The notes beneath the pieces were generated by a model, which made no database searches, was not told the DNA's origin, and saw nothing but the letters and a program-made list of their open reading frames with translations. The position numbers and the translations under genes are program-made. Positions 2,704 to 60,897 of a DNA stretch of 64,000 nucleotides are shown here, piece after piece (the stretch's first letter is position 1; each line of letters opens with the position of its first letter). Where the stretch lies: NCBI GenBank assembly GCA_027334715.1, contig DAHWUG010000001.1, positions 107,158-171,157 of the forward strand. The letters are read 5' to 3'. This DNA is from Nanobdellota archaeon. Lineage in GTDB: Archaea > Nanobdellota > Nanobdellia > Pacearchaeales > GW2011-AR1.

Positions 2704-3231
2704 TTATTTCTTTTTTCTTTTTGGTTTTTTTACCGGCTTCAAGCCAAGATCCAACACCGGCTTTACCTGGTGCTTTTCAAGAAAAGTATAAACATTTGAC
2801 TGCTTTGACCCTTGAATAAGATAAATAAGCGCTTCCACTGCATTTTTTATGTATTCTGGATCGCCTATTATTCCAACATAATTTCCCTTAATCTCAAAAA
2901 AACATTTTGTAAGCTCGTGAAGAGCACGCAGGGTTTTTCCCCCTTTGCCGATAATTCTTGCCCTGACAACTTCAGGGTCTTTTCTTTTTGAATAATCTTT
3001 TATTTTCAGTGCTTCAAACATCAAATCTTCCTTCTTTATTAAAAGGGCTACAGAAAAAGGAAAACCGAAATCCAAGGCTTCAATTACTTTTTCCCCGACA
3101 TATTCATCTTCTGCCTTGCCGTCAACCACAACTTCATTTCCTTTGATGCTTATTTCCAGATTTAGACTTTTCTCAAGATTTTTTTTATTCTCTGTAATTC
3201 TTTGCACTTTATCGCAAAATAAATTTTCCAT
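2704..3231 (-). CDS. KH-domain RNA-binding protein (Dim2/Pno1-like)
   Basis: 175 aa with the KH signature IIGKGGKTLRAL. Its start overlaps the aIF-1A stop (ATGA), matching the conserved archaeal aIF1A-KH neighbourhood. Confidence 0.65.
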   Translation of the reverse strand: MENLFCDKVQRITENKKNLEKSLNLEISIKGNEVVVDGKAEDEYVGEKVIEALDFGFPFSVALLIKKEDLMFEALKIKDYSKRKDPEVVRARIIGKGGKTLRALHELTKCFFEIKGNYVGIIGDPEYIKNAVEALIYLIQGSKQSNVYTFLEKHQVKPVLDLGLKPVKKPKRKKK

Positions 3232-3551
3232 CAGAATTCAAGCATATCTTTTTTTAGATAGCCGTTATTTTTTAACCATTCTACCTGATTGGGACGATAT
3301 TTGAATATTACATCACCCTTGTCTTTGTCAAGCTCCCAAAGCTCAATTATTACGACATCTCCAGGGCGAAGCCACAACTCTCTTTTTAGCCTTCCAGGAA
3401 CACGGCAATTCCTTGTTTTTCCATCAAGGCAGCTGACAAGCATCTTATTTCCACCAAGTCTCTGTTCTATAACCCCCATTACTTCTTCTTTTCCATGAGG
3501 AAGTCTGACTCTTGTCACAATTTCTTCCTGATTCCCCTGATTTCTGTCCAT
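3231..3551 (-). CDS. eif1a: translation initiation factor aIF-1A
   Basis: 106 aa with an S1-like OB pattern: VIEQRLGGNKMLVSCLDGKTRNCRVPGRLKRELWLRPGDVVIIE. Confidence 0.85.
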   Translation of the reverse strand: MDRNQGNQEEIVTRVRLPHGKEEVMGVIEQRLGGNKMLVSCLDGKTRNCRVPGRLKRELWLRPGDVVIIELWELDKDKGDVIFKYRPNQVEWLKNNGYLKKDMLEF

Positions 3552-13476: not shown

Positions 13477-13585
13477 TGCACCAGCCGGGAATTGAACTCG
13501 GATCACGAGCTTATTCCGTTTGACGAATGCATATACATGTAGTCATTCATGGGAAGCTCGTATTCTGCCATTAAACCACTGGTGC
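13477..13585 (-). tRNA. tRNA-Gly (CCC) with 38-nt intron
   Basis: The reverse complement folds as GCACCAG TG GTTT AATGGCA GAAT A CGAGC TTCCCA[38-nt intron]A GCTCG TGAT CCGAG TTCAATT CCCGG CTGGTGC A. There is one A-C mismatch in the T stem. An alternative register would read TCC. Confidence 0.7.
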
Positions 13586-13650
13586 ATGTTTTCTGTAAAT
13601 ATAGTTTCCATTTAATAAATTTTTATATACACAAATTGCTTTTCTTAATT

Positions 13651-14013
13651 ATGGTAAAAAGGCAGGTAAGATGGAACATGGAAACAGATACCGGGGAGCA
13701 GGTAAGACTAAGGCACAAATATACTTTTTTGGTGGTTAATGAGAACAAAGAAATAAACAGGATTACAGAGAGGATATTCCAGCAACTGGCTCCTGTTGAT
13801 GAATATGATCATATTGGAGTTTACCATATAAAAAAATCAAATGGGCTTCTCTGCGATGTATTTTCATTCCTTACAGATAAAGGAAGAATAGAACATCCTG
13901 AATTAATATACAATAATCTAATCAATTTTGTTCATGACAGGGATTTAAAATCTAGGCCAGAAGAAGACATCTTACCTTATCTGGAAAGGACACTGGGCGC
14001 AGGTATAAGTTAA
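13651..14013 (+). CDS. hypothetical protein
   Basis: The track ORF starts at 13549 inside tRNA-Gly, so I trimmed to the ATG at 13651 (120 aa). No family recognised. Confidence 0.4.
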   Translation: MVKRQVRWNMETDTGEQVRLRHKYTFLVVNENKEINRITERIFQQLAPVDEYDHIGVYHIKKSNGLLCDVFSFLTDKGRIEHPELIYNNLINFVHDRDLKSRPEEDILPYLERTLGAGIS

Positions 14014-14043: not shown

Positions 14044-15471
14044 ATGGCAAAAACCAATGAAAAATTTTACATAACAACTGCAATAGACTATGTTAATGCA
14101 AAGCCACATGTTGGCCACGCATTCGAGAAAACAATAGCAGACGCTCTTGCCCGCTGGAATAAACTGAAGGGCAAAAAGGTATTTTTTCTGACAGGCGTTG
14201 ATGAAAACGCACAAAAAAATGTTCAGGCAGCTGAAAAAGCAGGAATTCCAGTGAAGCAGTTTGTGGACAAGAATACCGGATTTTTCATTGAACTCTGCAA
14301 AAAACTAGAAATAAATTATAATGACTTCATAAGAACTACTGCAAAAGAACATGCAATAATCGTGAAAGAAATAATAAAAAAGATAATTGATAAAGGAGAC
14401 ATATACAAATCAAATTATGAGGGCCTTTATTGCACAGGCTGCGAAGAATACAAGGCAGAGAATGACCTTGTAAACGGAAAATGCCCTGAGCATAACAAAG
14501 AGCCGGAATTCAGGAAAGAAGAGGCCTATTTTTTCAAATTGAGCAAATACCAAAAACAGCTTCTTAAGATAATCCCCAAATATGTTGTTCCTGAAAAAAG
14601 GGCCAATGAAGTTCTTGTAAGGGTGAGGGAAGGCCTTAATGATATATGCATAACAAGAAAGGATGCACAATGGGGCGTTGATTTTCCCGGAGAAAAAGGA
14701 TTCAAGGTCTGGGTGTGGATTGATGCCCTGATAAACTATATTTCAGGATTGAAAGAAAAAGAAAAAGAATACTGGCCTGCAGATGTTCATGTTGTAGGAA
14801 AAGGGATAAACTGGTTTCATTCTGTTATCTGGCCCGCACTACTTCTTTCAGCAGGGTACAGTCTTCCAAGAAGTTTGCTTGTTCATGGTTACCTGACTCT
14901 AAAAGGGGGAAAAATAAGCAAAAGCACAGGTAATGTAATCGACCCTGTTGCTCTTTTAGAAAAATATGACAGCGATTCTGTAAGATACTCTTTGCTCAGA
15001 TGCTCTGTATTTGAAGATTCTGATTACAGCGAAGAAATTCTAAGGGAAAGACACAACAACGAGCTTGCGAATAAACTTGGGAATTTAGTCAGCAGGGTTA
15101 CATCATTGGCTGAAAAATACGGAATAGAAAAGTCCGAGAATAAACTGATTAAAAAATTAAAGCTAAAGGAAATAGAAAAAAATATTGATGAATACTTCCT
15201 GGACAAAGCGCTTAGCGGGATATTTGCATTCATCGACATTTGCAATGAACATGTCCAGAAAAACAGGATATGGGAAACAGGAAACAAAAAACAGATTTAT
15301 GAGCTTTTAGACAGCATAAAGGCGATTGCAATCTTGCTGTGGCCGTTTATTCCCAAGGCAAGCGAGAAAATCGCGAAGAACCTTGGCATAGAGATAAAAT
15401 ACAAAGATATAAATCTGCCCCTGAAAATAAACAGGATAAAAAAGGCAGAAATCTTGTTCAGAAAAACATAG
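14044..15471 (+). CDS. metG: methionyl-tRNA synthetase, catalytic core only
   Basis: 475 aa. It has a HIGH-type motif (KPHVGHAF), a zinc knuckle (CTGCEEY...CPEH) and a KMSKS-type motif (KISKSTGN). The C-terminal tRNA-binding domain is absent. Confidence 0.9.
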   Translation: MAKTNEKFYITTAIDYVNAKPHVGHAFEKTIADALARWNKLKGKKVFFLTGVDENAQKNVQAAEKAGIPVKQFVDKNTGFFIELCKKLEINYNDFIRTTAKEHAIIVKEIIKKIIDKGDIYKSNYEGLYCTGCEEYKAENDLVNGKCPEHNKEPEFRKEEAYFFKLSKYQKQLLKIIPKYVVPEKRANEVLVRVREGLNDICITRKDAQWGVDFPGEKGFKVWVWIDALINYISGLKEKEKEYWPADVHVVGKGINWFHSVIWPALLLSAGYSLPRSLLVHGYLTLKGGKISKSTGNVIDPVALLEKYDSDSVRYSLLRCSVFEDSDYSEEILRERHNNELANKLGNLVSRVTSLAEKYGIEKSENKLIKKLKLKEIEKNIDEYFLDKALSGIFAFIDICNEHVQKNRIWETGNKKQIYELLDSIKAIAILLWPFIPKASEKIAKNLGIEIKYKDINLPLKINRIKKAEILFRKT

Positions 15472-15590: not shown

Positions 15591-16919
15591 ATGGTGAAGA
15601 AAAGAAATAAGAGGTTTAATCTTTCTAACAGGGCTCTTTACACATTTATAACATTTGGAATAATTATTATCTTGGCTGTCGGAATTTATGCTTTGACGCC
15701 AGGTGTTGCGCCAAATCCGGGGCATTTGATTACAGATGTTGCACCTCCCTCTAACTGTTCTTCTGGACAGTTTCTTCAGTTTAATGGAAGTAACTGGGAT
15801 TGCGCAAGCGTACAGCAGAGTTCTGTCCTGCAAGGAGGATTGAATGTGACTATTATACAACCTCCATCAGATGCAAGTTTTGTTAATTGGGTGCCAATTT
15901 TAGCAACAGTTGTAAATTATAGCCCTGTAAGTGTGCAATTTTATTTAGATGATTCTCCTTTAGGAAAATTCTTTACATCACCTCTTTATGCAATGGATTG
16001 GTTAAGCAATGAAACCCCTGACGGAAATCATACAATTTCTGTAACAGCAACTGACTCTTCTGGAAATCACGCAAGTGACAATGTTACAATATACTTACTG
16101 AACAACGCCTCAAAAAATATTTCTTCAGGATTTTTCTGCAATTATAATGGGGTTTGCGATGTTGGTGAAACCGCTTCCACGTGCGTAGACTGCATACCCC
16201 CTCAAACATCAGGATCATTATCAACATATTGTAATAATAATGGTTATTGTGAGCCGCAACTGGGAGAAAATTCTGTTAACTGTGGTGACTGTTACTCTTC
16301 TGGTTCAATTGGAGGTTCAGGTTGCTTCGTTCCTGGGACAGAAATTTCTACACCATCAGGAAAAGTTCCTATTCAGGACCTTAAATTAGGAGATGAAATC
16401 TTTTCAGTTAACACAAGCAGTAATAAACTTGTGCCTGAGAAAATATTATTCATTTACTCCATTCCTGCCGTGAAAACTATGAGGGTTGTTTTAAGTAGTG
16501 GAACAGTTTTAGTTGTAACACAAGAACATCCTTTTTATGACCCCCTGTCAAAAAGTTATAAACCAATAAAAGATTTTAAGCAAGGAGACAAAGTTCTTAT
16601 TTTCGAAAATTCAACTGCACAAGAATCAATAATAAGCTACATCGGATTCTTACCCTCATATGATGGACAGCCAGTGTATAACATGCATGTGAGCGGTCCA
16701 TTTCTCAACTTCCTCGCAGATAATGTTTTGGTTCATAATAAGGTAGCATATCCTACTGAAGGGGGAGTAAGTGGCAGTACTTCAGGAAGCGGCGGAGGTA
16801 ATGGAGGGGGAGGGGTTTGTTACTCTGTCCTTTTAGGTGGTGGAATACCTTGTAATGCTAATGTGTTTTTTCCTGGAAGTGCTATTTGTGCATCTGGAGA
16901 TATAATAACATGCTCATGA
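15591..16919 (+). CDS. secreted/anchored cysteine-rich surface protein with PNPGH module, Ig-like domain, CxxxGxC..GE...C..DC mini-repeats and an internal Hint domain
   Basis: 442 aa with an N-terminal basic stretch plus a TM segment (YTFITFGIIIILAVGIYA) and many N-x-S/T sequons. Domain motifs were read from the translation. Confidence 0.7.
   Translation: MVKKRNKRFNLSNRALYTFITFGIIIILAVGIYALTPGVAPNPGHLITDVAPPSNCSSGQFLQFNGSNWDCASVQQSSVLQGGLNVTIIQPPSDASFVNWVPILATVVNYSPVSVQFYLDDSPLGKFFTSPLYAMDWLSNETPDGNHTISVTATDSSGNHASDNVTIYLLNNASKNISSGFFCNYNGVCDVGETASTCVDCIPPQTSGSLSTYCNNNGYCEPQLGENSVNCGDCYSSGSIGGSGCFVPGTEISTPSGKVPIQDLKLGDEIFSVNTSSNKLVPEKILFIYSIPAVKTMRVVLSSGTVLVVTQEHPFYDPLSKSYKPIKDFKQGDKVLIFENSTAQESIISYIGFLPSYDGQPVYNMHVSGPFLNFLADNVLVHNKVAYPTEGGVSGSTSGSGGGNGGGGVCYSVLLGGGIPCNANVFFPGSAICASGDIITCS
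16323..16739 (+). other. Hint / bacterial-intein-like (BIL) autoprocessing domain, residues 245-383 of the 442-aa protein
   Basis: CFVPGTEI (Cys1, block A), VVTQEHPFY (TxxH, block B) and ADNVLVHN (block G, terminal HN). Residue +1 is Lys. There is no endonuclease insert. Confidence 0.65.
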
Positions 16920-16926
16920 TAAAAAA

Positions 16927-18777
16927 ATGAATAAACAAAAAAGTCAATTGCCAAGTATAAAAGAAATGAAAATAAAATTTACTCTATTAGATAAATTATT
17001 CTATACTTTTATAACTTTTTTAATATTCTTAGTTTTAGGTGTTGGCGTTTATGCTACATCTTTAACGCCGGGCCAGGCGCCTAATCCAGGGCATCTTATA
17101 ACAGAGATTGCCCCCCCTTCTCCTTGCTCTGCAGGTCAGTTTTTAGGTTGGAATGGAACCTTGTCTTCATGGTTTTGTGCTTTTGCACCTGCTTCGCTTA
17201 TAGTGTCGGTTAGCCCTTCACTAGGGGAACCTGTCTTAACCCCTGGAACAACGCCAAATCCTGGGCATATAATAACAGAAGTTGCGCCGCCTTCTTCTTG
17301 CCTTAATGGTCAATTCCTGCAGTTCAATAGCGCAACATGGGCATGCGCTTCCTTCGCCTCTTCTACAACGCTTTCTGCTCCACAAAATCTTACTGGTTTC
17401 TTTGACCAGTACCTTGTTAGGAACAATCTGGTGTGGCAGCCAGTTACAGGAGCTGCAGGATACAACTTTTACAGAAATGGAACTCTCTTTAAGAGTATAG
17501 GAAATTACACCTACTTTATTGACGATAATATCACAAAGGGCAGCACATACTCTTATACTGTTACTGCCTATGACCAGTATGGCGCTGAATCAGGACAGTC
17601 AAACTCGGTTACAATAAATGTGCCCATCAAGAGTACGACACCCCCAACAGTCAGCATAATAAACCCTGTGAGCGGCGCAAATCTAACTGTATCCTATGCG
17701 TATGGGAATCCTTCTGCTTACATGATTAATATAACGACCCAGACAACAAGTTACAACGGAATATCTTATGTCAATTTCTGGCTTGCTAATAGTTCTCTAC
17801 CAGATTTAAACTCCCAGAGTGTTTATATTGGGACTGCTTGGGGCAACAATCCCTCCCTTTACTGGAATGGTTTGAATGCTCCTAGCGGAAATTATAATCT
17901 TATTGCAGTTGCTTATGATATCTATGGCTATGTATCAAATTTGTCATACGTGACAATCCACATAACTGATGCATCTCCTTTCTGCCCATCATACTGCCCT
18001 GCCTCATGCATAACTGGTGTTTGCGCTGCGCCTTCAAATGGGACTTACAGCATCCCATTCTACTCGTTATGCACTGCAAATGGTGGAATCGTTTTCCCAA
18101 ATGACATATGCCAGTTAAATGATTCTTCATGCCCTCTTAATTGGATTGCAAACTGGAATTTCTCAGACTGGGCAACAACAACATCAAACACCTGTAATGG
18201 AGGCACTGCATATGGTGATTATGGACAAGTATGTACAGGGAATTCATGCACAACTGGCTCAGAACCTTGGAGCAATACCTACTCATATCCTATATCAAGC
18301 TGTAATTATAACTCTGCATATTCATATGCTACATCAGACCCTGCCTTATGCCCACAAGGTGGACAATGCACTGTTTGCGCTACAAACTCAACAACATGCT
18401 ATGCCAATATTGTGCAGGTAGGTTGCACTATTTATCCTACATCTCTGAGATGCACAAATGCAGGAGGTACATGGGACAGTCAGCATAATGTATGCCAGTT
18501 TGGGGGAAGTGCATGCCCTAGTGGATGGAATTTTGTCCCATCATGGACAACCACTATTCGTAATACATGCGATGGAACAAATGCCATAACATTAACAGGA
18601 GCAGCTACAGGGTGTTATGGAAACTCATGTACAACTGGATATCATGCCTGGAATAATCTTCCTACAGAATCCTGCAGCTATAATCAGTCTTATATAAATA
18701 ATGCTACTGGCGCCTGTTCTATTAATCAGCAATTTTGTTATGCTAACGTAACACAGGTCGGCTGCCTCCCTGCTTAA
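16927..18777 (+). CDS. secreted/anchored cysteine-rich surface protein (2 PNPGH modules, FN3, Ig-like, two ~105-120-aa Cys-rich repeats)
   Basis: 616 aa, starting 7 nt after the previous gene. The N-terminal YTFITF anchor is paralogous to the upstream gene. It has an FN3-like segment (APQNLTG...YSYTVTAYDQYGAESGQS) and an internal duplication ending CYAN(I/V)(V/T)QVGC. Confidence 0.7.
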   Translation: MNKQKSQLPSIKEMKIKFTLLDKLFYTFITFLIFLVLGVGVYATSLTPGQAPNPGHLITEIAPPSPCSAGQFLGWNGTLSSWFCAFAPASLIVSVSPSLGEPVLTPGTTPNPGHIITEVAPPSSCLNGQFLQFNSATWACASFASSTTLSAPQNLTGFFDQYLVRNNLVWQPVTGAAGYNFYRNGTLFKSIGNYTYFIDDNITKGSTYSYTVTAYDQYGAESGQSNSVTINVPIKSTTPPTVSIINPVSGANLTVSYAYGNPSAYMINITTQTTSYNGISYVNFWLANSSLPDLNSQSVYIGTAWGNNPSLYWNGLNAPSGNYNLIAVAYDIYGYVSNLSYVTIHITDASPFCPSYCPASCITGVCAAPSNGTYSIPFYSLCTANGGIVFPNDICQLNDSSCPLNWIANWNFSDWATTTSNTCNGGTAYGDYGQVCTGNSCTTGSEPWSNTYSYPISSCNYNSAYSYATSDPALCPQGGQCTVCATNSTTCYANIVQVGCTIYPTSLRCTNAGGTWDSQHNVCQFGGSACPSGWNFVPSWTTTIRNTCDGTNAITLTGAATGCYGNSCTTGYHAWNNLPTESCSYNQSYINNATGACSINQQFCYANVTQVGCLPA

Positions 18778-18910: not shown

Positions 18911-19252
18911 TTATCTCACCCTGCTTCCTAATTCAATATCCTTTTCCGGCTGCAGCAGGAAAACATCTCTTTCATCTGAAGAAACAGCTGCAAGAAGCAT
19001 TCCTTGACTTTCAATTCCCTTTAACTTTCTTGGTTCAAGGTTTGTGAATACAATTATTGTTTTTCCTTTTAACTCTTCTTTTTTGTAATGCTTCTTTATT
19101 CCTGCAACAAGCGTTCTTTTTCCCAGCTCTTTGCCCAAATCAATTGAAAGCTTGTAAAGCTTGTCAGCTTTGTCTATTTCTTCAACATCAAGGATTTTTG
19201 CCGTTCGCAGGTCAATTTTCTGCCATTCTGAAAAGGGAATTATCTCTGCCAT
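18911..19252 (-). CDS. stand-alone tRNA-binding domain protein (Trbp111/EMAPII/MetRS C-terminal-like)
   Basis: 113 aa. The pattern F..IDLR.AKIL.VE.I..ADKLYKL.IDLG.E..RTLVAGI...Y..EEL.GK..IV..NL.PRKL.G..S.GMLLAA is the OB-fold tRNA-binding domain. Confidence 0.75.
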   Translation of the reverse strand: MAEIIPFSEWQKIDLRTAKILDVEEIDKADKLYKLSIDLGKELGKRTLVAGIKKHYKKEELKGKTIIVFTNLEPRKLKGIESQGMLLAAVSSDERDVFLLQPEKDIELGSRVR

Positions 19253-37859: not shown

Positions 37860-37979
37860 TGGCCCCGATGGGATTTGAACCCACGACACCTGGATATCTC
37901 CATGTTCTTTCGCAGAACTTCCGCGGGAAAACCCGCGTCGTAAGAGTCCAGTGCTCTGACCAGACTGAGCTACGGAGCC
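37860..37979 (-). tRNA. tRNA-Lys (CTT) with 45-nt intron at 37/38
   Basis: The reverse complement folds as GGCTCCG TA GCTC AGTCTGGTCA GAGC A CTGGA CTCTTA[45-nt intron]A TCCAG GTGTC GTGGG TTCAAAT CCCAT CGGGGCC A. The intron contains the GC hairpin CGCGGGTTTTCCCGCG. Confidence 0.8.
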
Positions 37980-49910: not shown

Positions 49911-52900
49911 TTAAAAATCTCCAAGCTTTGTCTGCTTTTTTCCTGTAATCATTTCGTGGATATTTATGTTGAAGACCTGAAGAATATTTTCAACTGCAGG
50001 CAGAATTTGCTTGTTCAAATAATATTCAATATTGTATTCCCCCTTTTCATCAGGAAGCTTTACTTTTTCACGAACTAATTTCTTTTTTTCTCTTGTCTCT
50101 GCTATGAAATATTCAATAAGATTGCCACTGCCTATCGGAATTTCTTTTTCCCGCATTTTTTGCGCTGCAATTACATGAGGAGAAATTGCCTTATACTCTG
50201 CCAATGGCTTTTGCAGCATCGTCTTGATTATAATTTCCTCTCTCTGCACCTTTCTTTGTTTCAAGTCCTGAATAACTTTTTTTATGAAATTTAAAGCCCT
50301 TTGTTCATTTCCGTCCTGCAAAACCATGCGAATAACCTCATTCTGCGTTTTTCTTGCAAGCTGGCACCAGTCGCGCCTTACCGTTTCGAAACCACGGATT
50401 TTTAGTTTGTTATCTTTTCCAAGAAGAGCATATTTCTTTTTTGCCCCTAAACCACCTGCTCTTTTTGTTACCCACAAACCCCTAGTGAAGAAACCTTCAA
50501 GCTCAAGATCCATTATTCCAGGAAGTTCTGAATTAAGCCTTTCAAGAAGTTTTTTTGCCTGCTCTTCTGTATGATTTTCAAGAAGGAAAGCTATGCTGTC
50601 TGTGTTGTGAACTAAAACATAATTAGCAAAAAATCTATGGTTATCTTCTACTTCTATATCATAAACATATCCCCTATTATTTATCTCTTCAATTTTTTTA
50701 ACCCCCTGTAAATCAAATTCGAAACCACTTATAGATTTTTTTCTATAACTCTTGGTTTTTATTTGAGATAACTTATTTTTTCTGTCTAAAACAAAGCCAA
50801 TTTTCTTACAAAATGACACTTTATCCTTAATAATCAGATTTATGGAATTACTTCCTGAAGAGTATACCTTTCCTTTAGACTTATACCTGTTATCAGAGTT
50901 TTCCCTAAATGTAGAATTGGATATCCCCAATTTAAACAATAATTTTCTAACTTCTTTAACATACTTTTCATTGATAGAAGTATATTTTATAATTGGAGTA
51001 TTATTTCTCATCATCACGGTTCCGTCAGCAGAAAATAACCCCCTCAAGAAAGAACCAACATTCTCCTCTTTATCATAGAATAACCACCCAGGTATGGATT
51101 TTTTGGAGCTATCATCCACAAACTCCTTTGATATAATATTAACAATTTTTAAGCCATTAGTGGTTATATCCCCTTTTCTTGTTTTGCTCAACCAATAGTT
51201 CTTAATATACCCCATTTTCTGCAGTGGTTTGATTAATTTCTTTATTAATTCTTCTTTATCTGATCCAAGAGAAAGACGCAAGTAATAATCTTTTTTATAT
51301 TTTTGATAAAACCTGTTTCTCATAAAACTTCCATCTCCAATAAAATATCCTGCAAATTCATAAACTTCTTTAGGGTAATTTTTAGATTTTTGAGAATTAA
51401 CTGGAATGTTCTTTAAAGAAATAATGCTATTTGCCCTCTTCTTTATCTCTTCTGGTTTTATTTCAATAAGCCTATTCATAGGATTAGTTTTATTATTCTT
51501 TGATTGATTAAAATTTACTGCTTGATAACCAATTAATGAATGATCTTCAGTGACATCAATATGCCAATTATTAGTAAAGTGAACCCTAAACATCCTTTTA
51601 TTAGACTTATGACGCATGACATATTTTATTGGGCTAAATACTGATTTACCCTTAGCATCAATTGTTAAAACTTCAGCGTCTTTTATGAGATTATACTCTT
51701 TATCAACTCTTTTATTATAAATTTTCTTAAAAAGATTTTCTATATTCTCTTCATAAACCTGATTATCTTTTCTTAATATTACCTTTGTATCCCCGCTAAC
51801 GCTATCAGAGTATATTACTTTGTAGCCGCTCTTGTCTATTTTCTCTATTGAATCCCTTATTGATTTTCTTGCAAAGGCAGCTGTTGCAGCAGCAGCTTCT
51901 CTTGAATAATATCTTGCCCCGAAAAATCCCTGATATCCATAGGAAGCGTTTGCCAAGAGCTTGAATGCATTGCTTCTTGCACGCTTGATTACATCTGGCT
52001 TTTTTTTCAGCTCTTCCTTGAACTTTTTCCTCTTTTCAATTATTTCCTTAAGCATTTCCGGGAAAAATCCGGGCTTTTTTGTAAAGGAAACTTTTTTACC
52101 CTGTATTTCTATGCTGTAAGAATTTTTATCGTCCTTTTCTTTTTCAAGGAATGTAGACTTTGACAGATTAAAAGTTACTATAGTGCTTCCATAGCTGGAT
52201 GTGAAATCGAAAACAGAGATATTTTCATACAATCCGGGAGTTGGCTCAAAAACAAATGCACCTTCATACTTTTCCTTACTTCTTCTCTCCCCTATTTCAT
52301 CATTTGTCGGCCTTTTTTCAGGTATCTCATTGAATTTTTCAAGATTGTGCAGGATAAAAGATTCCACATTTTTTGACATTCCGTTTCTTGTCACTTCTGA
52401 TGTTGGCTCGTGCATTACTCTGCTGAATTCAAGAATATCTGGCCACATTTTTTCAAATAGTTCATAAACAAGAACAGAATCATGAAGGTTGTATTCAAAA
52501 TAACTTTCCCAGTTTGAATCAGTGAGTTTTGAGGAATGCTGATGCTTGAACTGCTTTTTTTCATCGCCAAGAAATTCATGAGCAACCTCATTTAAGGATA
52601 AAGTTTCTGACTGCATGTACTGGGAGTAAGCTGTTCTTATGAATTTCAATAAATCAACATGAACAATTCCCTTTGTTTTTGCGGAAATTTCAAATCCACG
52701 AGAAAAACGGGGTTGTGTTGAATCAAGACCAATTGAAAGCCTTATATTATTCTTCTCTGCGCGCATTTTCATATACGGAAGGTCAAAGCCATCTGAGAAA
52801 TATCCAACAAGGAAATCAGGAGAAAGCTTTTTTACATATTCAAGGAATTTTTCTATCAAATCAGCCTCATCCTTTACATATTCAAGAAAATCAAGATTTT

Positions 52901-53582
52901 TTTCACTGGTTTTTGGCTTTTTCCATGTGATGACTTTTTTGAAATTGTCTGAAACAAGGGAAACCATCAAAATTTCCCCCTCTCCAAGCTTTATGTCATC
53001 TGTTTCAATGTCATATGCCATTACCTTTGGCTTGAATTCAATTTCATCCTCAATTTTTTTTGTGGAATCAATCTTAATGCAGAAATCAACATCAAGATTT
53101 GAATCAACACCACCAAAATCCATGGAATTGTTCAGAACTTCTCCTGAAATTTTGTACCACTGCAATGGATTTATCTTTTTCTCAATTATGTAGTGTGTGT
53201 CAAAACCAAGATCATAACCTCTTCTGCACTGTATTTCCGGAAAATCAAGCCTGTCTGCAACATCATGAAGATCTTTGTAGTTTGTGGCAAAAATTTTGAG
53301 TGCTTTTACCTTTTTGTCAAGGAAGTTTTTTTCATGCAATTCAACGCCTTCCACCTTTGTTTTTCTGCCTTTAAGGTCAAGCTCAATATCCTTTATCTTT
53401 TCAATAAGCCTGTTTATCTTTTCAGAGCTAACTCCTTCCTTGATGATTGCCCAAAGATAAACAGGGCAAGTGTCAATAAGGCAAATTCTCTGGTTTTTGC
53501 TGTTTCTTCCGAAGATTTTGATATAATTCCTGTCTTCAAAGTCAAAATGGTCATAGTCTACTGGAATAAAATCTGTTTCCAT
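49911..53582 (-). CDS. polB: family B DNA polymerase (PolB), interrupted by an intein
   Basis: 1223 aa. It has an Exo I motif (AYDIETD), Exo II (YFSDGFDLPY), Pol motif A (VFDFTSSYGS), motif B (KLLANASYGY) and motif C (YSD|TDS), which is split by the intein. The extein is 823 aa. Confidence 0.95.
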   Translation of the reverse strand: METDFIPVDYDHFDFEDRNYIKIFGRNSKNQRICLIDTCPVYLWAIIKEGVSSEKINRLIEKIKDIELDLKGRKTKVEGVELHEKNFLDKKVKALKIFATNYKDLHDVADRLDFPEIQCRRGYDLGFDTHYIIEKKINPLQWYKISGEVLNNSMDFGGVDSNLDVDFCIKIDSTKKIEDEIEFKPKVMAYDIETDDIKLGEGEILMVSLVSDNFKKVITWKKPKTSEKNLDFLEYVKDEADLIEKFLEYVKKLSPDFLVGYFSDGFDLPYMKMRAEKNNIRLSIGLDSTQPRFSRGFEISAKTKGIVHVDLLKFIRTAYSQYMQSETLSLNEVAHEFLGDEKKQFKHQHSSKLTDSNWESYFEYNLHDSVLVYELFEKMWPDILEFSRVMHEPTSEVTRNGMSKNVESFILHNLEKFNEIPEKRPTNDEIGERRSKEKYEGAFVFEPTPGLYENISVFDFTSSYGSTIVTFNLSKSTFLEKEKDDKNSYSIEIQGKKVSFTKKPGFFPEMLKEIIEKRKKFKEELKKKPDVIKRARSNAFKLLANASYGYQGFFGARYYSREAAAATAAFARKSIRDSIEKIDKSGYKVIYSDSVSGDTKVILRKDNQVYEENIENLFKKIYNKRVDKEYNLIKDAEVLTIDAKGKSVFSPIKYVMRHKSNKRMFRVHFTNNWHIDVTEDHSLIGYQAVNFNQSKNNKTNPMNRLIEIKPEEIKKRANSIISLKNIPVNSQKSKNYPKEVYEFAGYFIGDGSFMRNRFYQKYKKDYYLRLSLGSDKEELIKKLIKPLQKMGYIKNYWLSKTRKGDITTNGLKIVNIISKEFVDDSSKKSIPGWLFYDKEENVGSFLRGLFSADGTVMMRNNTPIIKYTSINEKYVKEVRKLLFKLGISNSTFRENSDNRYKSKGKVYSSGSNSINLIIKDKVSFCKKIGFVLDRKNKLSQIKTKSYRKKSISGFEFDLQGVKKIEEINNRGYVYDIEVEDNHRFFANYVLVHNTDSIAFLLENHTEEQAKKLLERLNSELPGIMDLELEGFFTRGLWVTKRAGGLGAKKKYALLGKDNKLKIRGFETVRRDWCQLARKTQNEVIRMVLQDGNEQRALNFIKKVIQDLKQRKVQREEIIIKTMLQKPLAEYKAISPHVIAAQKMREKEIPIGSGNLIEYFIAETREKKKLVREKVKLPDEKGEYNIEYYLNKQILPAVENILQVFNINIHEMITGKKQTKLGDF
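50604..51803 (-). mobile_element. 400-aa LAGLIDADG intein in PolB motif C (residues 594-993)
   Basis: The N-junction is VIYSD|SVSGDTKVIL, block B is VTEDHSL, the LAGLIDADG motifs are FAGYFIGDGSF and FLRGLFSADGTV, and the C-junction is YVLVHN|TDSIAF. Coordinates were checked against the DNA codons. Confidence 0.85.
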
Positions 53583-58473: not shown

Positions 58474-60897
58474 TTACAGCTTCTTCTCTGCCTTTACCGC
58501 AGTAGGAGCTTCTCCTCCATGCCAGGTGAATCTTGGGCGAACACGAATTGGATAAAGCCTTTCTGAGTTGTCGTCAAGAAGAACAGCGCTCCCCTTCAAA
58601 GAGGGAAGGTCGTCCATCTGCTTTTTTATGCTTTCAAGAACATAAGATTGCATTATGTAATTCAGTGCCTCTACATCCGGCTTTGATGTAACCCTATGCG
58701 CGATGACAATGTCCGATTGCGTCATTACATCATGATGTATTTGTCCTGGCTGCTGTGTTGCAAGAACAAGCGAAATCCCTGGCTGCCTTCCTTCTCTTAA
58801 AAGCTGGATTAAAGCATCTGTTGCAACTGTTTTTCCGTTCAATGGGAGAAATTCATGGGCTTCATCAATAAAAATCCAGACAAGCGGATTGTCTTTTTTT
58901 ATGCTTCTTGAAAGGTAATCGAGTCCCTGGGCAACTGATTCCGTCTCTTCCTCTTTTCTTGAATCCATTCTCTGGCTGAAGATTTTTCTGCAGAGAAGGC
59001 TTATTGCCAAAGCGCGGATATTAAAAACACCGACAGAATTGTAAACGCTTAAGTCAAGCACTGTTGTTATTCCTGCTGAAACCAATTGCTCAACTTTTGT
59101 GGCTTCTCCCCCTTTTTTTGCAAAGATTCCCCATGTATTTGCAGCTTCAAAAAGTCCGATTGCAGCGTTTTTTATTTCCTGGGGAGTTTTTTCATCTGAA
59201 TTCAATGCATCAAGAATATCATCAAGGTCATATTTTCCCTGCTCTTTTAATTTAGTAAGAACTCTTTGTATAATAATTGAAACAGGATTAATCAGCTCAA
59301 GACCAAAAGTAAGAATCCAGTCTTCAGGATTCAGCTCATTAACATCCAGGGCAAAAGTTTCATCTGCAGGAATCCCTTTTTCAAGATAAGAGTCATAATG
59401 TCCAAAAGGAACAAATATTTTTACAGGAAGATTTTTTTGCTTTAAATCCCATTCTGTCAGCAAATCCTTGTCCTTTTCATTTTTGAATTTCATTGTCCAA
59501 TAAATTCCCATTGTGTCAAAAATAAGAGAGCCTATGTTTTGGCTTGCCTCTTTTGGAAGAGAAGAAAGTTCTTCTGCTATAACCCCAAGGGTGTATGATT
59601 TTCCACTATTATGTGAAATTATTCCATTTGCAATGAAAGAATGATTTTTATCAACTGTTAAATCATAAACCTCTTCAATATTCTGTAAAAAAGAAATTTT
59701 TTTTATCTTTTTGCATACCAAACTTTCATCAATATAACAGGTTCTTCTTTTCCCCATATTATTAGCCTTATGGTTGTTTAATCTATCCTGTTTAAATTTA
59801 ATTATGCTCCCTATTCCCTTAAATTTTTCAATTGAATTATTGTCTGTTATAAATAACCTGTAACTTTCAAATTTCTTTCCATTTACTTTAGATATTTTTA
59901 ACCTTATTGACGATTCTATTCCAAAGTGAGTCAATAATAATTGCAAATCCTGTAAAAATTCTCTGGATTTTGAACTATAATCAATATATCTTCCTTTTTG
60001 AGGTATATAGCAATCACAAGAAAATAAGGCATTAATAAAATGGGACTTAAATTCATTAGAACTCTCAAATACTATTCTTGGAACCCTAATAATAGCCGAT
60101 TTATTTCCTTCTGGAACACCAAAGGAAATTAGTTTATTTACAACTGGTTGATGTAAAATCTGAACTACTTCACAATTGCAATCATTTCTTAAATATCTTT
60201 TTGCATAAACATTAAATTCCTGCTCAAAATCCTCTTTTGCCTGTGATAGGACTTCATTATCAGCATTGAATATTCTTATTCTTGCTTTTGTACCATTATA
60301 CAAATAGCCTCTTCCGTCTTTCCATATCCCTTTTCTAATTCTTATATTCCCATCAGCGAGTATATAACCTAATAATCTTGCTATTCTTAGGCTTTCTTTA
60401 CCTTTTTTAATCTCAGGCAATCCTAAAGGAAGAACTATTTTATCCCCAACTTTTAATTCTTCCCCGCCCCTCCAAAAAATATATTTTCCATAAGATGCAA
60501 GTAAGGGATGTTCTTTTGTAATTACTATCTCCCTTCCATCATCAAGTTCTATTTTTAAAAGCTCTTCATTCTTAATGGGATATTTTAAAAGTTTAGCATT
60601 TTCCAATTCAAAGTTCTTTTTGTCTTTGTTAAAAGATAATATCTTATCTTCTTTTTCATTAAAATCTTTTATTTTTTTATATCCTTTATCTGTAAATACT
60701 AACGTGTTCCCCTCAAGGCATCCCCTTTTTCCGGCAACCAGAATGACATGGGAACGGGCAACGTCCATGAAAATTTTGTTGCTTAAAGAAGTGTACTGCC
60801 CCATTTTCACGTAACCCTTTCCAATATACACAAGACCGCGATTTCCAAATGCCTTTTTGTCAGAAGCATCCCTTCCAACTGTTATATCATAACCCAT
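58474..60897 (-). CDS. HerA/FtsK-like (DUF87, COG0433-type) P-loop ATPase, interrupted by an intein
   Basis: 807 aa. The Walker A motif VAGKRG|SGKSYT is split by the intein. It has Walker B (VWIFIDEAHEF) and LREGRQPGISLVLATQQPGQI...SDIVIAHRV, which is typical of HerA-like ATPases. The extein is 436 aa. Confidence 0.75.
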   Translation of the reverse strand: MGYDITVGRDASDKKAFGNRGLVYIGKGYVKMGQYTSLSNKIFMDVARSHVILVAGKRGCLEGNTLVFTDKGYKKIKDFNEKEDKILSFNKDKKNFELENAKLLKYPIKNEELLKIELDDGREIVITKEHPLLASYGKYIFWRGGEELKVGDKIVLPLGLPEIKKGKESLRIARLLGYILADGNIRIRKGIWKDGRGYLYNGTKARIRIFNADNEVLSQAKEDFEQEFNVYAKRYLRNDCNCEVVQILHQPVVNKLISFGVPEGNKSAIIRVPRIVFESSNEFKSHFINALFSCDCYIPQKGRYIDYSSKSREFLQDLQLLLTHFGIESSIRLKISKVNGKKFESYRLFITDNNSIEKFKGIGSIIKFKQDRLNNHKANNMGKRRTCYIDESLVCKKIKKISFLQNIEEVYDLTVDKNHSFIANGIISHNSGKSYTLGVIAEELSSLPKEASQNIGSLIFDTMGIYWTMKFKNEKDKDLLTEWDLKQKNLPVKIFVPFGHYDSYLEKGIPADETFALDVNELNPEDWILTFGLELINPVSIIIQRVLTKLKEQGKYDLDDILDALNSDEKTPQEIKNAAIGLFEAANTWGIFAKKGGEATKVEQLVSAGITTVLDLSVYNSVGVFNIRALAISLLCRKIFSQRMDSRKEEETESVAQGLDYLSRSIKKDNPLVWIFIDEAHEFLPLNGKTVATDALIQLLREGRQPGISLVLATQQPGQIHHDVMTQSDIVIAHRVTSKPDVEALNYIMQSYVLESIKKQMDDLPSLKGSAVLLDDNSERLYPIRVRPRFTWHGGEAPTAVKAEKKL
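59608..60720 (-). mobile_element. 371-aa LAGLIDADG intein in the Walker A loop of the HerA-like ATPase (residues 60-430)
   Basis: The N-junction is AGKRG|CLEGNTLVFT, block B is ITKEHPL, the LAGLIDADG motifs are LLGYILADGNI and FINALFSCDCYI, and the C-junction is GIISHN|SGKSYT. Coordinates were checked against the DNA codons. Confidence 0.85.

Follow-up and report, generated by a model that had tools for sequence, protein, structure and literature searches.

In a 64,000-nucleotide stretch of contig DAHWUG010000001.1 from a Nanobdellota archaeon (hereafter the window), a gene for a predicted exported protein of 442 amino acids (aa) was found to carry, in residues 245–383, a Hint (Hedgehog/intein) domain of the bacterial intein-like (BIL) or pre-toxin-HINT kind, which makes it a new archaeal member of a known domain type. 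Judging from its sequence motifs, this domain is very probably an active BIL-type autoprocessing domain. By analogy with characterised systems, we favor a reading in which it acts as an A-type BIL / pre-toxin HINT that would excise itself and ligate its two flanks, in competition with hydrolysis, and to which we assign a probability of roughly 0.6.

Identification of the Hint domain

The gene has a sole full-length homologue in an index of 5.8 billion proteins (P0002, 75–77% identical, encoded on a 3.4-kb ENA contig referred to as L001), and a whole-protein scan of 185,579 species genomes revealed no relative. The gene, the domain and its key residues are located as follows, with a slash marking a predicted processing junction.

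15591..16919, + strand: whole gene, from the open reading frame (ORF) list, encoding the 442-aa exported precursor
16323..16739, + strand: Hint domain of the BIL / PT-HINT kind, residues 245–383 (139 aa, 15.4 kDa), from Pfam, PDB phmmer, AlphaFold2 and Foldseek
16323..16325, + strand: Cys245, domain position 1 (Cys1), predicted thioester-forming nucleophile behind Gly244 (SG/CF), conserved in P0002
16518..16529, + strand: block-B motif T310-Q-E-H313, in VVTQEHPFY, conserved among relatives
16734..16739, + strand: C-terminal pair His382-Asn383, at the end of FLADNVLVHN, of which the Asn is predicted to cyclise and thereby cut the Asn383-Lys384 bond
16740..16742, + strand: Lys384, the +1 residue, hence no Cys, Ser or Thr nucleophile, strongly conserved in the Hint subfamily

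The initial annotation of this DNA had placed a full mini-intein motif set in residues 245–383 of the 442-aa ORF, and Cys245 (in the context SG/CFVPGTEISTPSGKVPIQDLKLGDEIF), T310/H313 and N383 are indeed all present, its interval running from the Cys245 codon (16323) to the end of the stop codon (16919). Its remark that a Lys follows the Asn and that there is no endonuclease insert agrees with K384 and with the length of 139 aa, which leaves no room for an endonuclease.

Among Pfam families, PT-HINT (PF07591) was the best for this domain. It scored a marginal 28.7 bits (E 1.8e-6) with the whole protein, its cut-off being 27.7, and 31.1 bits when only the C-terminal 198 aa were used. Hint_2, Hint and Intein_splicing stayed slightly under their cut-offs (24.7 bits for Hint, PF01079, which is below its cut-off of 29.7). 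The search with Hint, intein and PT-HINT profiles that had been proposed earlier thus came out above the cut-off for PT-HINT. A phmmer search of the PDB returned as best match 2LWY, a 'bacterial intein-like domain' (E 2.8e-6), with residues 245–383 aligned to residues 4–138 of 138, and the best intein followed at E 4.7e-3. The AlphaFold2 model, built on 44 relatives, was all-beta with a predicted local distance difference test (pLDDT) score of 91–98 over the Hint domain (residues 245–384). When this model was compared with the PDB using Foldseek, 63 Hint, intein and BIL entries were matched with probability 1.00 at E<=1e-3, the top ones being BIL2 (6y75/6tmm; E 8.5e-11 for 6y75) and 2lwy (template modelling (TM) score 0.90, root-mean-square deviation 1.6 Å), with mini-inteins close behind and Hedgehog among the matches as well. 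Structure prediction had also been suggested at the outset, and its outcome of an all-beta fold for which BIL domains and mini-inteins rank first is in line with the original proposal. Relative to P0002, the ratio of nonsynonymous to synonymous substitution rates (dN/dS) of the Hint domain was 0.14, and all catalytic residues were identical.

The domain fits the description of A-type BIL domains on all features tested save the bacterial host. It has Cys1 and the C-terminal His-Asn, falls in the size range of ~130–155 aa, contains neither an endonuclease nor a +1 Cys, Ser or Thr, sits in a variable region of a secreted protein, and is closest in both sequence and structure to BIL domains. The window itself (G+C ~35%) is archaeal by gene content, encoding MCM, ATP-dependent DNA ligase, archaeal-type topoisomerase I, CDC48, TBP, ribosomal protein L15e and tRNAs that presumably carry introns, and this departure from a bacterial host is one of distribution, not of mechanism.

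The host protein and its C-terminal tail

The 442-aa protein is composed, in order, of a signal or anchor, a two-Cys 'PNPGH' module (referred to as the head module), an immunoglobulin (Ig) domain, two Cys mini-repeats, the Hint domain, a Gly-rich linker and a four-Cys tail. The parts flanking the Hint domain are the following.

15627..15695, + strand: N-terminal hydrophobic helix, residues 13–35, behind a KKRNKR stretch (Kyte-Doolittle, AlphaFold2)
15696..15812, + strand: head module, LTPGVAPNPGHLITDVAPPS-C-x3-GQFLQFNG-x2-W-x-C, common to many surface proteins with unrelated C-terminal parts
15846..16043, + strand: Ig-like domain (Pfam Big_7), residues 86–151, at 25.1 bits against a cut-off of 24.1
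16137..16292, + strand: two Cys-rich mini-repeats, CNYNGVCDVGETASTCVDC (residues 183–201) and CNNNGYCEPQLGENSVNCGDC (residues 214–234), from a regular-expression match
16740..16817, + strand: Gly/Ser-rich flexible linker, residues 384–409, fast-evolving and with indels
16818..16916, + strand: four-Cys C-terminal module, residues 410–442, CYSVLLGGGIPCNANVFFPGSAICASGDIITCS, delimited by conservation with respect to P0002

The region of the helix at residues 13–35 contains the sole 19-residue Kyte-Doolittle window above 2.2 in the protein, and a helix was also placed there by the full-length AlphaFold2 model. It could be either a Sec signal peptide, with a putative cut after GIYA34, or an N-terminal membrane anchor. 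The mini-repeats follow the pattern C-x(2-4)-G-x-C...E...C-x-DC, and the protein as a whole contains 12 N-x-S/T sequons and 15 Cys. The host of the Hint domain is an exported and probably glycosylated surface protein, and the extracellular location proposed in the initial annotation is backed by the helix, by a Big_7 score over the cut-off, by the two mini-repeats and by the sequons. The full-length AlphaFold2 model was confident solely for the N-terminal helix and the Hint domain, the Ig-like region being of low confidence and both this region and the tail being uninformative.

Purifying selection was evident over the whole gene (dN/dS 0.13 with respect to P0002), with the lowest value within the gene in the head module (0.05). 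Proteins P0003–P0013 align to the head-module region only, and a metagenome scan keyed on this module yielded 28 family loci, none of which (0/28) carried a Hint domain and none of which provided a further orthologue of the tail. Across these proteins (loci L008–L035) the module conforms to the pattern LTPG-x-APNPGH-x-I...C-x3-GQFLQ-x-NG...W-x-C, for which Pfam holds no model, and where it is N-terminal it sits behind a signal or anchor helix. The family comprises many exported proteins. Their C-terminal parts are wholly different, ranging over Gly_rich_2, fibrinogen-like domains, Ig arrays and Cys-rich modules.

The tail that follows the Hint domain had been described as a Gly/Cys-rich peptide of 59 aa with four Cys, and it indeed contains 16 Gly and Cys residues at positions 410, 421, 433 and 441 (5.4 kDa in total). 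Its two halves evolve differently. The linker (residues 384–409) is 61% identical to that of P0002 with a nonsynonymous proportion (pN) of 0.38 and has a pLDDT <50, whereas the four-Cys module is 79% identical, keeps 4/4 Cys and has a codon-by-codon dN/dS of 0.13, on a par with the Hint domain, the ectodomain and the gene as a whole. Since this end is constrained while the linker drifts, the tail consists of a flexible tether with a module under selection at its end. No Pfam match at E<=1 and no known toxin domain were found in the 59-aa tail, no confident structure was predicted for it by AlphaFold2, and no homologue was returned when residues 395–442 were used as query against the 5.8-billion-protein index, a search that also missed the orthologue, probably because of low complexity. 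A role of the tail in sorting or in anchoring the C-terminus to the membrane was considered too, and was rejected on its maximum Kyte-Doolittle value of 1.33 and the absence of a basic end.

Contrast with the inteins of the window

Two canonical inteins are encoded elsewhere in the window.

49911-53582, − strand: family-B DNA polymerase (PolB), 1223 aa, with intein_Nterm at residues 595–683, intein_Cterm at 972–994 and a +1 Thr (VHN/T)
58474-60897, − strand: HerA/FtsK-like ATPase, 807 aa, with an intein at ~residues 60–431 and a +1 Ser (SHN/S)

Both show separated N- and C-terminal splicing blocks and inserts of endonuclease size (~370–400 aa). The Hint domain of the 442-aa protein is not a selfish intein, because it has a +1 Lys and a minimal size and resides in a lineage-specific surface protein, and because 28 head-module loci are without Hint. 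The earlier classification as a Hedgehog/BIL-type domain rather than a selfish intein is thereby supported, in the form of a BIL / pre-toxin-HINT kind of domain in an exported protein. No empty-site (Hint-less) allele was encountered among the 28 metagenome loci, and the single orthologue also carries the domain.

Relatives of the domain and conservation of the +1 lysine

An exhaustive phmmer (HMMER) search of 1.84 billion representative proteins revealed 4885 relatives of the Hint domain at E<=1e-3, 585 of which were at E<=1e-10. Those nearest in sequence are not inteins but belong to secreted proteins in which Hint is one of several domains. Locus scanning with an alignment of 8 Hint sequences gave 6 loci only, and a broad alignment of 44 sequences was too diverse for such a scan.

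Conservation was assessed in 322 aligned Hint domains, tandem copies included, which came from the best 150 among the 4885 relatives. The catalytic positions were nearly invariant, with Cys1 in 99% (297/300), Thr310 in 96%, His313 in 99%, His382 in 100% and Asn383 in 99% of the aligned domains. The +1 position was a Lys in 242 of 271 domains (89%), in 114/132 when only the last domain of each protein was counted, and in 36 of the 47 single-Hint proteins (77%). Given a Lys in 89% of related domains, this residue is not an incidental 'non-nucleophile'. The initial annotation had concluded from the +1 Lys that canonical splicing is impossible, which is right, but it omitted non-canonical splicing (PMC5874633, PMC7664689), including joining through a Lys epsilon-amine (PMC8616854).

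Position 312, between Thr310 and His313, is Glu or Asp in 236/311 domains. This acidic residue tracks the +1 Lys, being Glu/Asp in 195 of the 242 domains with Lys (81%) vs 10 of the 28 without (36%), in counts uncorrected for relatedness, and from this sequence pattern it could serve the lysine as partner or general base. Small residues precede Cys1 in the 47 single-Hint proteins (Gly in 17/47, Ser in 12/47). In the same proteins, the sequence after the His-Asn amounts to 2–15 residues in 22, 16–80 residues in 11 and more in 14, with examples such as KL, KF, KPPATCE, KTCVVYTDE and a Gly-rich 28-mer with two Cys. Cys occurs in 15 of the 33 tails of <=80 residues.

A survey for the same architecture, as had been recommended, identified the orthologue P0002 and similar layouts in three further proteins. 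In P0064, a pseudopilin-type N-terminus is followed by the same Cys mini-repeat in 10 copies, then by the Hint domain and nine further residues. An Elusimicrobia protein (on L003) passes from Cys-rich sequence through a Gly run into its Hint domain and ends in a Gly-rich tail with two Cys. The third, P0057, is pilin-like with the Hint domain at its end, and is encoded at a bacterial locus with genes for a secretin and a Tad-type ATPase. Bacterial secreted or pilin-like proteins ending in a Hint domain plus 0–7 residues were observed at L036 (6001-7380) and L004 (2-805, 825-2303 and 3320-3790). Three Hint-containing ORFs lie next to one another on a contig labelled Muribaculaceae, and at least two of them terminate with that domain.

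Apart from the orthologue, the closest relative is a 2624-aa protein of a Candidatus Pacearchaeota (Lac Pavin genome), which is 50–51% identical, has Ser in place of Cys1, and continues after the Hint domain for 306 aa, a C-flank for which neither a Pfam nor a PDB match was found. As NCBI names this protein 'Hint domain-containing protein', DPANN archaea do possess Hint domains of such kind, and annotation pipelines pick them up. The initial annotation, which was not aware of a described equivalent, therefore overstated the novelty, also in view of the 4885 relatives, although our search of the accessible literature found no paper linking Hint domains of such kind to DPANN archaea.

A large family of relatives (P0014, P0016–P0021, P0023, P0025 and others) displays a signal peptide followed by 2–5 back-to-back Hint domains, each ending in HN-K and joined to the next by G, GG or GGG alone. 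A Gly-rich stretch comes next, often followed by a hydrophobic stretch and then ~400 aa, and P0014, the sole tandem-Hint protein scanned against Pfam, contained a Tim44-like domain. Once the signal peptide is cleaved, nothing but 'GGG' would precede the first Hint domain, and the arrangement fits no explanation considered here.

Proposed self-processing and alternative explanations

In the mechanism that we propose, export and folding of the precursor would be followed by conversion of the Gly244-Cys245 bond to a thioester (N-S acyl shift), with Thr310 and His313 assisting. Asn383 would then cyclise to a succinimide with the assistance of His382, by which the Asn383-Lys384 bond would be cut and the 15.4-kDa Hint domain excised. 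An amine of Lys384, be it the alpha-amine freed by this cut or the epsilon-amine, would subsequently attack the thioester, so that the 59-residue tail would become joined to the Ig/Cys-repeat ectodomain. Competing hydrolysis would instead leave two free products, the 5.4-kDa tail and an ectodomain with Gly244 as its last residue. Dassa et al. reportedly described in 2004 an alternative BIL route in which Asn cyclisation comes first and the freed amino group then attacks the thioester.

We infer both the occurrence of these reactions and ligation over release as the selected outcome from characterised BIL domains and from conservation patterns. A-type BIL domains without a +1 nucleophile undergo cleavage at either end as well as splicing by an alternative route (PMC5874633), and BIL domains, which give mainly cleavage products, can be turned into efficient splicers by a single mutation (PMC7664689). 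In BIL2, moreover, the N-flank is joined to a Lys epsilon-amine in an isopeptide bond (PMC8616854). Ligation is favored over release because the His-Asn and the Lys are conserved together even where the tail has two residues, because the tail is selected, and because the two flanks resemble each other in being Cys-rich, extracellular-type sequence, here as well as in relatives. In the 22 of 47 single-domain relatives with tails of 2–15 residues, release of a payload would be pointless. By this analogy we give ligation of the flanks as the selected outcome a little less than even odds.

A number of points weigh against this proposal. No processing experiment on the 442-aa protein or on any +1-Lys relative was found, and the BIL domains that have been characterised yield mostly cleavage, not ligation (PMC7664689). 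The homologue and metagenome searches turned up no Hint-less homologue in which ectodomain and tail are contiguous, which would be the signature of the spliced product. In the tandem-Hint relatives, splicing would leave Gly/Lys linkers alone, which is hard to rationalise. Finally, PT-HINT scores just 1 bit over its cut-off, and the conservation counts, drawn from the best 150 of 4885 relatives with tandem copies included, are non-independent observations. A broader version of the proposal, in which bacteria and DPANN-like archaea would share a large 'His-Asn-Lys' Hint subfamily whose +1 Lys would resolve the Cys1 thioester and join flanks extracellularly, through a peptide or isopeptide bond and without Cys, Ser or Thr, seems unlikely from the sequence pattern at hand. 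If it were true, lysine-dependent splicing here would attach a four-Cys knot of 33 residues to a surface adhesin.

The initial annotation had offered two functional outcomes, namely thioester-mediated attachment of the adhesin part or release of a Gly-rich peptide, and neither is directly supported by the results. The latter outcome corresponds to the logic of pre-toxin HINT domains, in which cleavage at the Asn383-Lys384 bond alone would free the 59-residue tail as a diffusible effector, such as a bacteriocin-like toxin or a signal. Precedents exist, as HINT peptidases directly upstream of C-terminal toxin domains are inferred to release these (PMC3482391), as in the secreted toxin MafB an A-type BIL separates the constant part from the variable one (PMC4287609), and as BIL domains mostly cleave in vitro (PMC7664689). 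The best Pfam family, PT-HINT, is over its cut-off, the host family likewise combines a constant head with variable C-terminal parts, purifying selection acts on the four-Cys module, and the Pacearchaeota relative with its 306-aa C-flank has a toxin-like layout. However, the tail, although it may be a peptide toxin of a novel type, matches neither a toxin nor any other family in Pfam or in the homologue search, and its folded part is just ~33 residues. The gene downstream encodes a 616-aa exported paralogue and not a small immunity protein, the flanks are housekeeping genes, and the locus is syntenic, vertically inherited and free of cassettes. Moreover, in half of the single-domain relatives the tail is not long enough to be a payload, and tail release would leave unexplained both the conservation of Cys1 and TxxH and the presence of HN-K in relatives with 2–15-residue tails. 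We therefore consider release of the tail possible but doubtful.

In a Hedgehog-like transfer, an outside nucleophile (for example from a lipid, glycan or S-layer protein, or an amine on the surface of a host cell) would resolve the Gly244-Cys245 thioester and anchor the ectodomain covalently, and the Hint domain and tail would be discarded. The G/CF junction is as at the Hedgehog cleavage site, the mature ectodomain would have no other anchor if the signal peptide is cut, and in many relatives, such as P0057 and P0064, a pilin-like or secreted protein has the Hint domain at its very end. Hedgehog processing itself needs an N-S shift and an external nucleophile only (PMC7664689, PMC5874633), and BIL2 can pass its N-flank to lysines of other proteins (PMC8616854). 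Yet a pure N-terminal transfer has no need of a near-invariant His-Asn and +1 Lys, does not account for purifying selection on the tail, and would have to proceed with no identifiable acceptor and with a tail for which Pfam showed no homology to a sterol- or adduct-recognition region, which makes it highly unlikely. The last alternative takes the domain for a structural module without catalytic activity, or else for a canonical selfish mini-intein from which the endonuclease has been lost. It does have the size of a mini-intein, mini-inteins are among its top structural matches, and genuine inteins are present within the same window. Nevertheless, all catalytic positions are intact and conserved with the orthologue under the dN/dS of 0.14, the +1 residue is Lys vs Ser/Thr in the resident inteins, and the host is a variable surface protein with Hint in 0/28 sampled relatives instead of a conserved housekeeping site. 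As its nearest sequence relatives are, in addition, Hint domains of secreted multi-domain proteins, this alternative appears extremely improbable.

Genomic context

The gene immediately downstream of the Hint gene is co-oriented with it.

16927..18777, + strand: neighbour gene, 616 aa, exported, 7 nt downstream of the Hint gene

Both genes are probably co-transcribed. The 616-aa protein contains two copies of the PNPGH head module (approximately 17044-17160 and 17215-17340) and is a surface-protein paralogue rather than an immunity-like protein. It had no NCBIfam match and only sub-threshold Pfam matches, to Big_7 and RGI_lyase (both E 0.015). Neither a small immunity-like gene nor toxin cassettes were present downstream of the Hint gene at the locus. 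Programmed fusion of the Hint gene with its neighbour was considered and rejected, since an in-frame TAA comes after the TGA stop and the ATG that follows lies in a different frame. A relationship between the tail and the start of the Cys-rich module of the neighbour (CNANVFFPGSAIC resembling CTANGGIVFPNDIC) was likewise rejected, with a BLASTP E of 3.3 for a motif that had been picked post hoc.

The flanking genes are housekeeping genes, with methionyl-tRNA synthetase (MetRS) upstream and a free-standing tRNA-binding domain and a MinD/ParA-type ATPase downstream. L001 is orthologous and syntenic at ~76% nucleotide identity. It carries the Hint gene with the same neighbour, preceded by the end of MetRS and two extra small genes. 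As the same gene pair is found on L001, it is a stable chromosomal pair and not a mobile cassette. The extra genes, located at 451-1223 of L001 between MetRS and the Hint gene and absent from the window, encode 188 aa and 69 aa, the latter with a weak DUF8150 match. One part of the neighbour gene stands out, as window positions 17239-17574 and L001 positions 3053-3388 share 97% protein identity vs ~76% in the rest of the locus. This stretch covers the second head module and the start of a fibronectin-like region, and suggests either very strong constraint or recent gene conversion.

MetRS (14044-15471, + strand) is without a C-terminal tRNA-binding domain, and the free-standing tRNA_bind protein (113 aa; 18911-19252, − strand) lies 3.4 kb from it, with the two surface-protein genes in between. 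Three tRNA genes of ~110–120 bases were detected by Rfam only and missed by ARAGORN (2550-2670, 13477-13585, and 37860-37979 on the − strand), and are presumed to carry introns. The second of these overlaps the beginning of the called ORF 13549-14013.

Significance and comparison with known systems

Hint domains outside true inteins are textbook knowledge for bacteria (BIL domains, polymorphic toxins) and for animals (Hedgehog), and to our knowledge they are hardly discussed for archaea. Here, a DPANN-like archaeon uses a Hint domain on a surface protein. As DPANN-like organisms are thought to live attached to other cells, post-translational remodelling of such a protein could bear on host attachment. 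Beyond this locus, the +1 Lys is strongly conserved across hundreds of related domains in secreted proteins, even where just two residues follow. Should the Lys be the ligating nucleophile, this would amount to a new chemistry of protein splicing, of practical interest where proteins are to be ligated without Cys, and would explain a large set of unannotated secreted proteins. Should the domain simply cleave, it would be one more BIL/PT-HINT domain.

Canonical class 1 inteins share with the domain the superfamily fold, a Cys or Ser at position 1, TxxH and the terminal His-Asn, but have a +1 Ser or Thr and inserts of ~370–400 aa and reside at conserved sites of replication and repair enzymes, whereas the domain described here has a +1 Lys, measures 139 aa and is found in a variable surface protein. 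The likeness to A-type BIL domains, represented by 2LWY (C. thermocellum BIL4), extends to the length of ~140 aa, the lack of an endonuclease, Cys1, TxxH, the C-terminal His-Asn, the lack of a +1 Cys, Ser or Thr, and the variable region of a secreted protein. That class is defined as bacterial and the present host is an archaeon, the +1 Lys is a conserved feature here, and sequence identity to 2LWY is just 28% in the Foldseek alignment. The Cth domain characterised by Dassa et al. in 2004 reportedly had Ala at +1.

The Hog domain of Hedgehog (1AT0) has the same Hint fold (TM 0.80) and G/CF junction, and similarly acts upon a secreted N-terminal domain. Unlike Hog domains, the domain here retains a C-terminal His-Asn-Lys. 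Its score with Pfam Hint (PF01079) is below the cut-off, and no similarity to a sterol-recognition region was seen in its tail with Pfam or in the homologue search. Hog relies on an N-S shift and an external sterol nucleophile only (PMC7664689). With PT-HINT polymorphic toxins (PF07591; PMC3482391) and the Neisseria MafB BIL (PMC4287609), the domain has in common its position between a conserved N-part and a lineage-specific C-part of an exported protein, a score that passes the Pfam cut-off, and a closest archaeal relative that is a giant protein with Hint and a 306-aa C-flank. It differs in that the C-flank here is a 59-residue Gly/Cys peptide without toxin homology, and in that an immunity gene or cassette array is absent. 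The domain passes the PT-HINT model marginally, but its surroundings show neither of the two hallmarks of polymorphic toxin systems, a recognisable toxin domain directly C-terminal to Hint and an immunity gene directly downstream.

BIL2 of the Tetrahymena thermophila BUBL1 locus (6Y75/6TMM) is the top Foldseek match, and its thioester is resolved by a lysine amine (PMC8616854). It is eukaryotic, cytoplasmic and flanked by ubiquitin-like domains, with an identity of 24–25%. The +1 residue of the BUBL-like relative P0065 is a Ser, and the nucleophilic Lys of BIL2 lies inside the downstream ubl5 (PMC8616854). In the domain described here, the conserved +1 Lys suggests a BIL2-like lysine-amine chemistry.

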